A stretch of DNA of 24,368 nt from Nitrospirota bacterium. Its GTDB lineage: Bacteria > Nitrospirota > 9FT-COMBO-42-15 > HDB-SIOI813. The DNA lies in the NCBI GenBank assembly GCA_016214375.1, contig JACROQ010000128.1, positions 1 through 24,368 of the forward strand, given 5' to 3'. Below the pieces are notes generated by a model. That model had not been told where the DNA came from. It saw only the letters and a program-made list of their open reading frames with translations, and did no database searches. Numbering within the stretch: position 1 is the stretch's first letter; each line of letters starts with the position of its first letter. Made by a program: the position numbers and the translations under genes. Below are positions 13,990-15,936 of the stretch, in pieces.

Positions 13990-14030
13990 AAATGGGGACA
14001 GCGACCTATTTTCACCCAAGACCTGACCCC
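13990..14030. repeat. Chimeric hairpin element: GGGGACAGCGACC arm joined to a CAAGACCTGACCCC arm
   Basis: 13990-14014 is identical to 13121-13145 (25 bp). CAAGACCTGACCCC also occurs at 17934-17947. Confidence 0.85.
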
Positions 14031-14821
14031 AAACCTTTCCTTCTTTTCTTGTCATAGATCCTTATCACAAACTTGCAGAAATCCCTCCATTCACTGAAGT
14101 CGTACCACCAGACGTAGCGTAGCTCCTCAATGCCCGCTTCCTTCAGTTCTTTGGATAACTGCAAGAGCATTTTGTAGAGGAGACTTTTACCCGGAGAATC
14201 TGCATATTCCCAGTCTTTGAGCATTTCCGGAGATGCGTCAGAAGCGCCTACGCGATAGACAGGATGCCCCATGTCTGCATTGTGGAAACCCACACCAGTC
14301 CCGCTCTCGATAAGGGATTTGAGACCGCGATAGGTGTACACCTTTTCAGAGTATTTCTTGTCCGCCCCCGTTTGAACCGGTGGCTCCTCTCGTTTGATAA
14401 GGTCAATGAGTCTTTCCATCTCACGGTCCCAATCTTCATAGAAACAGAGATACTGGAGATCCTGCAACGTCTTGCCGGCGCCAATGTCCAACTGAGGAAT
14501 CTGGCAAGGGGAGAGTTTTATCGGGATAAGCCAGCCACTGTTGAAAGGTTTACTTCTCAGCATATCGACGCCCAACAACAATTCCTCGTTCATATATGTC
14601 TCTGTTCTCTTCTCGTATTCATCTGAGAAACAGGCCAGAAAAAATGCGCCCTTACCGATAGCGTCCCGTATAGCCTGTTTCCAAATCTTTCCAGGTTCTA
14701 TTTGGTCACGGTCAAGCCAATACTCTATGCCGTTGTTCCGGAAGGCTTCGCATATGCGATTCACGTCGCCGGAGTTGTTTCTGACGTAGGAGACAAACAC
14801 CCTTTTCTTAGCTTGACCCAT
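14012..14821 (-). CDS. TIR-domain protein with an unknown C-terminal domain (integron cassette 2)
   Basis: RVFVSY...YWLDRDQIEPG..W...IRDAI...FLACFS...YMNEEL...LIPIKL is a TIR_2-like pattern; lies directly after attC. Confidence 0.82.
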   Translation of the reverse strand: MGQAKKRVFVSYVRNNSGDVNRICEAFRNNGIEYWLDRDQIEPGKIWKQAIRDAIGKGAFFLACFSDEYEKRTETYMNEELLLGVDMLRSKPFNSGWLIPIKLSPCQIPQLDIGAGKTLQDLQYLCFYEDWDREMERLIDLIKREEPPVQTGADKKYSEKVYTYRGLKSLIESGTGVGFHNADMGHPVYRVGASDASPEMLKDWEYADSPGKSLLYKMLLQLSKELKEAGIEELRYVWWYDFSEWRDFCKFVIRIYDKKRRKGLGSGLG

Positions 14822-14855
14822 AGGAAATCTCCGTAATAGGTACTTACCTGTCGTG

Positions 14856-14913
14856 GCATAACGATAGAAGTCACCAGGGGCTGCAATCCATCCCCTGGGG
14901 TGGTTTGTTATGC
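14856..14913 (-). other. Integron attC site (58 bp)
   Basis: GCATAAC (RYYYAAC) 3 nt after the cassette 1 stop; internal CCCCAGGGG / CCCCTGG L-box palindrome with unpaired bases; ends GTTATGC (GTTRRRY-like). Confidence 0.8.
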
Positions 14914-14916
14914 TCT

Positions 14917-15636
14917 TTATCTAAGTATTTCAAATGAATTAAAAAAATCCTTTCGGTGCGAAGTGAACAATTTATCGCTGGGAGTAACCACCAAAAGCTG
15001 ATAAACACGATTATCTTTTAGAATTATTTGAGCGCTTAATACTGAATCAGGCTCTACTTTCACGGTAATCTCACGACCTGGATAATTGGCTTTTGAAATT
15101 ATAACTTCGCTCAATAATTTGCCTTGGACATTTCCAACGGCACCATTTCTTGCATTGTCTAATAATTGATCTGAAGTTAAACCAACAAGGGCATTACCTG
15201 GGTAATCTCCATACATGACTGAATAAAGTATATCTTTGTTTTTTGACATATACTGAATTAGTTCCACCTTCCCACTTGGAGCATTCACAATGTCAGACTC
15301 TCGATTCGGCTCAGTAGGGAACTGAACGGTAAAACTTTTATCGTCGGCCACAAATGTCTTCCATTGGGCAATTTGGTTCGATGACCCGGGTACATTCGTC
15401 GTTTGAACTTTAACCATTACAGTTCCAATGGCGTGAATGACAAAAAAACCCAATAGCCAAAGACCTATAAATTTCCAATATTTGTTTAACGGACGAGTTT
15501 TTACAAAATAATAAGGAACAATGAAAGGCAAAATAAGGGCTCCTAATGCCCACCACCTGGAGACGTTTTGTAAAGGGGCGTCCTTAAGAATCCAAATGGA
15601 AACAAAAACACTGTATAGAATATAATAAATTGTCAT
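14917..15636 (-). CDS. Membrane-anchored hypothetical protein with a possible PsbP/DcrB-like C-domain (integron cassette 1)
   Basis: About three N-terminal hydrophobic segments, WKTF..DDKSFTVQFP, ends FFNSFEIL. AT-rich. Starts 13 nt after GTTAGGT with a GAGGA RBS. Confidence 0.7.
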   Translation of the reverse strand: MTIYYILYSVFVSIWILKDAPLQNVSRWWALGALILPFIVPYYFVKTRPLNKYWKFIGLWLLGFFVIHAIGTVMVKVQTTNVPGSSNQIAQWKTFVADDKSFTVQFPTEPNRESDIVNAPSGKVELIQYMSKNKDILYSVMYGDYPGNALVGLTSDQLLDNARNGAVGNVQGKLLSEVIISKANYPGREITVKVEPDSVLSAQIILKDNRVYQLLVVTPSDKLFTSHRKDFFNSFEILR

Positions 15637-15649
15637 TTGTTTTCCTCAA

Positions 15650-15668
15650 ACCTAACCATTGATTGACA
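15650..15668 (-). other. Putative integron attI site
   Basis: Minus strand TGTCAAT-CAATG-GTTAGGT: degenerate L box, 5-bp spacer and GTTRRRY, between intI and the first cassette. Confidence 0.6.
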
Positions 15669-15735
15669 GGCAAATTTGCCCGACGCCAAAATCAAGACAT
15701 TATGCCTTTATAACGATAAAGTAAAGGATTTCCCC

Positions 15736-15936
15736 ATGCAGAGTCAAGACCAAAAAACAGACCAAAAACCAAAAATGCTTGACCAAGTCCGCAGGATGAT
15801 GTGCCTGTACCATTACTCCATCCATACCGAACGGACTTTCATTCTCAGGGTTCTCTTTTCAATGTTCACCCACACCTTCACGCCCTCGGCCTGCCGGCAT
15901 TATGAAGGATGGGTTCACCAATTTAGGAGATTATGT
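15736..15936 (+). pseudogene. intI: Integron integrase N-terminal remnant (interrupted and truncated)
   Basis: KPKMLDQVRRMMCLYHYSIHTERT[21 aa insert]YEGWVHQF matches the IntI LLDQVR...HYS..TE..Y..W...F motif. Divergent from the cassettes. No catalytic domain remains. Confidence 0.8.

Follow-up and report, generated by a model that had tools for sequence, protein, structure and literature searches.

Decay of integrons by loss of the integrase is already known. The survey of Cury et al. 2016 (PMC4889954) describes attC clusters that have no integron-integrase (CALIN), degraded integrons and disruption associated with insertion sequences (IS): an IS adjoins 38% of CALIN, and pseudogenes of the integrase gene intI, which were sought with a profile of the C-terminal part of IntI, lie near 15 of 279. 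A CALIN must have two attC sites or more, and IntegronFinder discards single ones (PMC4889954). Here we describe a further example from a groundwater metagenome-assembled genome (MAG) of a Nitrospirota bacterium (GCA_016214375.1; 1.42 Mb in 199 contigs, 81% complete). The window, as we call the whole stretch of DNA analysed, is the 24,368-nt contig JACROQ010000128.1 (contig C100 of the MAG), and it very probably carries a degraded integron platform on a 2.3-kb strain-specific segment, in a variable island downstream of murJ. The platform retains 36 integrase codons, an attI site, one complete cassette and one clipped cassette (Table 1).

As in degraded integrons and CALIN, the integrase has been lost while cassettes and att sites are kept, and an insertion sequence lies at the break. 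Unlike CALIN, the locus has a single surviving attC, and unlike the pseudogenes of Cury et al. 2016, its integrase remnant is N-terminal and falls outside a C-terminal profile. The locus is probably missed by standard detection tools. As regards a complete integron, attI and one attC are present, intI is cut at codon 36 and no outward cassette promoter (Pc) can be called; as regards CALIN, the window holds one attC-like site, the attC of its second cassette, which encodes a TIR-domain protein, having been deleted.

Two other described systems offer comparisons. An integron on a 2.5-kb metagenome contig (L141; ENA ERZ6864144) has the same first cassette (96% protein and 97% nucleotide identity) with the same attC; there too, the cassette sits at an attI's G|TT and points away from intI. 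The IntI of L141 is intact, with 412 aa and an N-terminal extension, and is not the closest relative of the truncated stub found here; its attI is unrelated to that of the window, and its second cassette holds a zinc-ribbon gene instead of the TIR gene. According to bioRxiv 10.1101/2024.07.02.601686, integron cassettes can encode anti-phage defence, and the second cassette of the window resembles these in encoding a TIR-domain protein with weak PADLOC effector matches.

A preliminary description of the window had proposed the canonical layout of intI, attI, cassette and attC, and the elements on which it relied are all present. An IntI-like N-terminus on the plus strand diverges from two minus-strand genes; the first of these begins exactly 13 nt past the attI-like GTTAGGT, with its ATG at 15636, and a 58-bp GCATAAC...GTTATGC site separates the two co-oriented genes. 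The order of intI remnant, attI, cassette, attC and second cassette is well founded, mainly through other contigs that share the cassette block. The window from 15656 to 14859 corresponds to L141 1459-2256 at 97% nucleotide identity, and the protein encoded there is divergent from an IntI that scores 419 bits against TIGR02249 (cut-off 265 bits). Homology begins at the G of GTTATGC in L141 and of GTTAGGT in the window, and ends within the R' box (GTTAGAC and GTTATGC, respectively). The flanks are unrelated, with another attI and IntI on one side of the L141 block and the zinc-ribbon gene in place of TIR on the other.

The same block matches positions 5981-6777 of a second contig (L135) at 84% nucleotide identity, with breakpoints at 15656 and 14860. 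The L135 relative (85% protein identity) stands in a run of four attC sites that are positive under our covariance model R2 (31.4, 26.6, 24.6 and 15.5 bits), its cassette lying between those of 31.4 and 26.6 bits. The mobile unit is thus bounded by a preceding G|TT and an attC, with breakpoints at 15656 and 14859/14860 in L141 and L135. Because the block recurs in unrelated contexts with breakpoints at the G|TT core and the R' box, we regard 15655-14862, judging from sequence, as a genuine gene cassette and the 58-bp site as its real, somewhat eroded, attC. Relatives of the membrane protein it encodes reach 96% identity, and the 84-96% set includes sequences whose sources are named Smithellaceae and Deltaproteobacteria (84-85%). 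The L135 run itself (5923-8531) lies between housekeeping-looking genes, with no integrase within 6 kb; contigs of this type are seen in many samples, and the membrane protein occurs in 173 blocks of the collection.

The attC models were built for this work because Rfam has no attC family. Model R1 was trained on 11 short sites adjoining bona fide IntI genes, mostly from one array, and its alignment shows covariation, with both sides changed in 11 of 19 pairs; model R2 was trained on 22 hits from IntI-adjacent arrays of many genomes and finds sites of 15-66 bits on the expected strand beside many integrases of the phylum. A crude scan combining boxes and folding worked for perfect R boxes only. 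The 58-bp site agrees with the attC box pattern (RYYYAAC/GTTRRRY, 57-141 nt) with one departure from consensus per box and a central 7-bp stem. It folds with a z score of -3.85, as good a fold being found in none of 200 shuffles; it is single-copy in the genome, and no other intergenic box pair of the window is a perfect (7/7) AAC...GTT match. A three-way alignment with the orthologous sites of L141 and L135 reveals that a few substitutions set the window copy apart, including a change on both sides of the stem that preserves its pairing (CAGCGG/CCGCTG to CAGGGG/CCCCTG). Its R''-AA..C spacer, L-box core (CCAG/CTGG) and 3' spacer (TTC.ATC-GTT) also recur in other attCs of the same genome. Outside the window, R2 finds five sites of 31-43 bits across the source MAG.

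Comparison of the stub with complete proteins establishes its origin. Its ATG at 15736 lies inside a 133-aa open reading frame (15676-16077), as had been noted. A six-frame search of 401 Nitrospirota genomes with stub residues 1-36 returned 50-57% identity to the N-termini of proteins of ~330-340 aa (E 1e-6 to 7e-9 per genome), among them G312:C31, G123:C2, G280:C68, G317:C98, G230:C33, G170:C13 and G107:C15. Every long-frame match coincides with a locus above the TIGR02249 cut-off (432-490 bits; 432.7 and 448.5 bits in a rescan of two), so the best full-length matches are all IntI and none is XerC/D. One of these relatives, G123:C2, adjoins a textbook array whose attI reads GTTAGGC, whose attCs follow the pattern GCCTAAC...GTTAG.. 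and whose cassettes encode toxins and antitoxins. An orthologous pseudogene is found in the genome G006, which is 100% complete and belongs to another genus of the same family: the copy on contig C141 has 83% protein identity to the stub and IntI homology to about residue 75, with stop codons and a small repeat insertion. NF011946 is the one NCBIfam profile that the stub matches, with an E value of 0.056; the match covers profile positions 15-44 and has the correct N-terminal register. TIGR02249 gives no match at its position, a Pfam scan of the stub gives nothing, and tblastn of the stub against plasmids returned only noise at E~5. With 36 residues left, the stub is a remnant and not a member of the IntI family.

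Across the phylum, IntI proteins above the cut-off are found in 93 of the 401 genomes, and none was found in the source MAG. A second degraded integron is seen on contig C13 of this MAG (L030), where the best family for a 90-aa, internally deleted intI at 1041-1313 is TIGR02249 (97.8 bits) and the typical IntI C-terminal motif is kept. Toxin-antitoxin genes lie upstream of this intI. Downstream, and on its strand, are two attCs (1773-1844 and 4586-4642; R2 scores of 33.7 and 42.6 bits), one of them directly after a 138-aa open reading frame (1362-1778) that is acetyltransferase-like by eye. Single attCs are present on contigs C49, C130 and C35.

Downstream of codon 36, the preliminary description had read a 21-aa insert within a continuing intI. 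This part is not supported: the stretch 15846-15912 is DNA of an IS91-family (Y2 HUH) transposase gene, by homology to copies in the same genome (C176:2506-2570 and C146:12931-12971) and in the same-genus sister genome. The fragment reads QGSLFNVHPHLHAL..PAGIMKDG, while the C176 and C146 copies belong to decayed genes reading ...LFNYHPHLHALVPAGIMKDG.... A full-length relative of 453 aa on G006:C103 contains the Zn_Tnp_IS91 (PF14319) and Y2_Tnp (PF04986) domains, and the C176 fragment matches Y2_Tnp with an E value of 9e-4, just under the cut-off. The codons for YEGW, which seem to restore an IntI motif, sit inside this IS91 fragment, and against the longer G006 pseudogene the window has no similarity beyond ~15844; IntI therefore ends at codon 36 (~15843), and a resumption of IntI after the insert (WVHQF) was rejected on the same grounds. 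What follows the stub is 67 nt of IS91 debris, 24 nt without assigned origin and a repetitive extragenic palindromic (REP)-like palindrome.

Some IS91-family elements carry an accessory tyrosine recombinase, and we considered the stub as such a gene. This candidate was rejected, as G006:C103 has no recombinase upstream and the relatives of the stub are IntI proteins with attC arrays. IS91 remnants are present in the islands of both sister genomes (10313-10600 in the sister contig and 15873-15912 in the window) at different positions and in opposite relative orientation, which hints at IS91-linked rearrangement of the island.

The attI region is best understood through its copies in G006. What these copies share extends between the intI start and the core and takes in the palindrome GGCAAATTTGCC; the core reads GTTAGGT in the window, GTTAGGC in C1 and GTTGGGT in C115. 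Copies of the attI region and the stub occur twice on C141 and once each on C1, C115 and C39, amounting to at least four partial modules of attI core, palindrome and intI start in a genome where no IntI above threshold was found. Each module is cut at a different codon on the intI side, and three keep the core. Past the core, nothing is shared any longer by the window and G006 copies, and each copy that keeps the core has another outward gene next to it; an end of similarity at this point is the behaviour of an attI. A promoter-like TTGACA-18-CAAAAT (15663-15692) faces the stub. R2 detects no attC near the G006 attI copies, nor elsewhere in the island of the window.

These copies speak against the better of two rival explanations, in which the cassettes would have settled at a secondary site or split off as a cluster, the integrase fragment being brought in by an unrelated IS91/REP rearrangement, so that there was never an attI. 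The region is indeed heavily rearranged, with the IS91 fragment, REP-like palindromes at both edges and a segment absent from the same-genus genome; the array that holds the same cassette in L135 lacks any integrase within 6 kb; and the top match of R2 in the window (15650-15705; 10.2 bits, E 1.3), the 58-bp site being the second, covers the presumed attI, whose GCATAAT box and internal palindrome make it faintly attC-like. However, at no fewer than three sites G006 has the stub, the upstream region with GGCAAATTTGCC and the core together and in the same order, and the similarity stops at the core, as expected of an attI linked to intI. We hence consider this explanation improbable and keep that of a platform with its own attI.

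The same copies raise a different matter. Since they are recurrent, are followed by different outward genes and have 76-92% identity to the window copy against ~72% for murJ, the module could conceivably be under selection, or mobile, as an independent unit, although we hold this to be rather unlikely. As such a unit, it might be a solo attI, a docking site at which an integrase encoded elsewhere acts in trans, or a block with an outward-facing promoter for the adjoining gene.

A second cassette had also been proposed, and this holds for its start and not for its end. In five metagenome contigs, nucleotide homology to the TIR cassette starts at 14857-14863, at the G|TT of the R' box, and the DNA that precedes it there is either attI-like or the attC of a different cassette. 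At the other end, homology stops at 14041-14044, where the other copies continue into their own attC directly after the stop codon; the attC of one intact copy (L142, 910-974) scores 33.6 bits under R2. In the window a hairpin remnant takes the place of this end, matching an arm of the 13121-13172 palindrome over 25 identical nt, and the second cassette has thus lost its attC. The alignment of the TIR protein with the relative P0001 extends to residue 261 of 269, so that only four residues at the end of its relatives are replaced. It has more than 250 relatives with up to 89% identity; PADLOC returns weak TIR effector matches (E 1e-8 to 1e-3), and no family is assigned to the C-terminal half. 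In L142 (~905-915), the TIR gene and its attC overlap, the TAA stop codon being part of the R'' box GCATAAC. The GGGGACA palindrome at 13121-13172 (region 13108-13172) encodes the C-terminus of a ParE-like open reading frame, and the sister copy of this frame ends differently.

Several observations weigh against the integron interpretation as a whole. Only one attC is present in the window. R1 finds no match at the 58-bp site at E<=10, its sole match in the window being elsewhere. The expectation that the site would score with attC models held for its orthologues (23.8 bits in L141 and 26.6 bits in L135 under R2), but the window copy reaches only 9.4 bits (E 2.3), on the cassette strand, with filters off and only the R boxes aligned. 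The stub alone attains just 12.6 bits on the IntI model NF011946, whose cut-off is 435 bits. No convincing outward Pc promoter is found in the attI region, where promoter-like matches are no commoner than in shuffled sequence. Finally, with the MAG 81% complete, an intact IntI elsewhere in the genome is possible. The remaining rival, a piece of some tyrosine recombinase of phage or Xer type lying by chance beside ordinary island genes and an ordinary hairpin, could appeal to the very short stub, the empty Pfam scan and the scores of the window site below significance under the attC models, but it is highly improbable given that all long-frame matches of the stub lie above the TIGR02249 cut-off with none to XerC/D, that G|TT breakpoints in three independent contexts are unexpected by chance and that the orthologous attCs pass the model.

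We next turn to the surroundings of the platform. On its left, the window carries core genes (gatA, panD, gatC, pcrA/uvrD, glmS, glmU, a DUF502 gene and a CBS protein gene) to ~10150, and on its right murJ (15964-17550) followed by other genes; the nearest record for MurJ is from a groundwater 'Nitrospirae bacterium' MAG (94% identity). Between these core genes lies a variable island of ~5.6 kb with HepT/MNT-type genes, ParE/antitoxin genes, an AAA_14/DUF4143 ATPase gene, a HicB-like fragment, the TIR and membrane-protein genes and the stub. The ATPase gene (11850-13040, minus strand) matches the PADLOC candidate defence family PDC-S01 nearly end to end (571 bits, E 2e-172).

The preliminary description had taken the locus for a sedentary integron next to murJ, which now appears doubtful. 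The same-genus contig L055 (G001:C92) aligns colinearly with the window (89-98% identity) and lacks 13665-15986; its murJ is followed by ~160 nt and a ParD/ParE-like pair. In other genera of the family, murJ is followed by unrelated genes, and no intI is present in the murJ flanks examined in G001/L055, G003, G006 and G009. Because the same-genus genome is without the segment, the relic is a strain-level indel in a variable island, with a REP-like palindrome on the murJ side, and not an old murJ-linked integron. This palindrome provides the last codons of murJ, MurJ ending in ...GDTPHISS here and in ...EGVPK in the sister genome. The segment may have been inserted here or deleted in the sister genome, both of which are compatible with the comparison of two genomes.

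Table 1. Features of the integron remnant and its edges (positions in the window, except for the copies in G006).
Feature	Position	Strand	Evidence
Integrase gene remnant, first 36 codons, catalytic domain absent	15736..15843	+	NCBIfam NF011946; six-frame matches to IntI
IS91-family (Y2 HUH) transposase gene fragment, 67 nt, HPHLHAL motif, 1-nt deletion	15846..15912	+	Same-genome copies; G006:C103 relative
attI / intI-promoter region with palindrome GGCAAATTTGCC (15670-15681)	15657..15735		Conserved with the stub in several G006 copies
attI core GTTAGGT, presumed crossover G|TT between 15656 and 15655	15650..15656	-	Homology of cassette 1 to L141/L135 starts at 15656
Cassette 1, complete, ~794 nt (open reading frame and attC)	14862..15655	-	97% nucleotide identity to L141, 84% to L135; flanks unrelated
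Cassette 1 gene, 239-aa membrane protein of unknown family	14917-15636	-	Open reading frame
attC of cassette 1, 58 nt, R'' GCATAAC, R' GTTATGC, eroded relative to orthologues	14856..14913	-	Fold; R2; alignment
Cassette 2, 3'-truncated, attC missing	14041..14861	-	Homology to five metagenome copies
TIR-domain gene	14012-14821	-	Pfam TIR_2, E 8e-19
Hairpin-family (GGGGACA-type, REP-like) remnant replacing 3' end and attC of the TIR cassette	13988..14040		25 nt identical to palindrome arm
REP-like palindrome, 25-nt arms, right edge of strain-specific segment	15937..15990		Homology break with same-genus genome at 15986/15987
Module copies in G006	L122 (C141:23805-23925, 24433-24491); L123/L147 (C1:13181-13364); L124/L148 (C115:3639-3726); L126 (C39:139-195)		

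Taken together, we propose the following history for the locus. An integron integrase would have recombined circular attC cassettes into its own attI at G|TT, the membrane-protein cassette entering last, ahead of the older TIR cassette. Later, an IS91-family element, of which 67 nt are left, would have cut intI after codon 36, and REP-like hairpin elements would have removed the attC of the TIR cassette together with whatever followed it. The remnant cannot recombine by itself, since no integrase is encoded at the locus; the platform would now be inert in cis, with two apparently intact cassette genes fixed. A promoter in what is kept of attI and the 5' end of intI may plausibly drive these genes.

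The locus leaves the understanding of integrons unchanged. It documents an end state of integron decay, an N-terminal integrase stub with a single eroded attC, and illustrates that such an element can be proved by locating the same cassette in other integrons. For the Nitrospirota, it adds examples of cassette sharing with contigs labelled as other lineages (84-85%, Smithellaceae and Deltaproteobacteria), of a TIR-domain cassette and of integrase inactivation by an IS91-family element.

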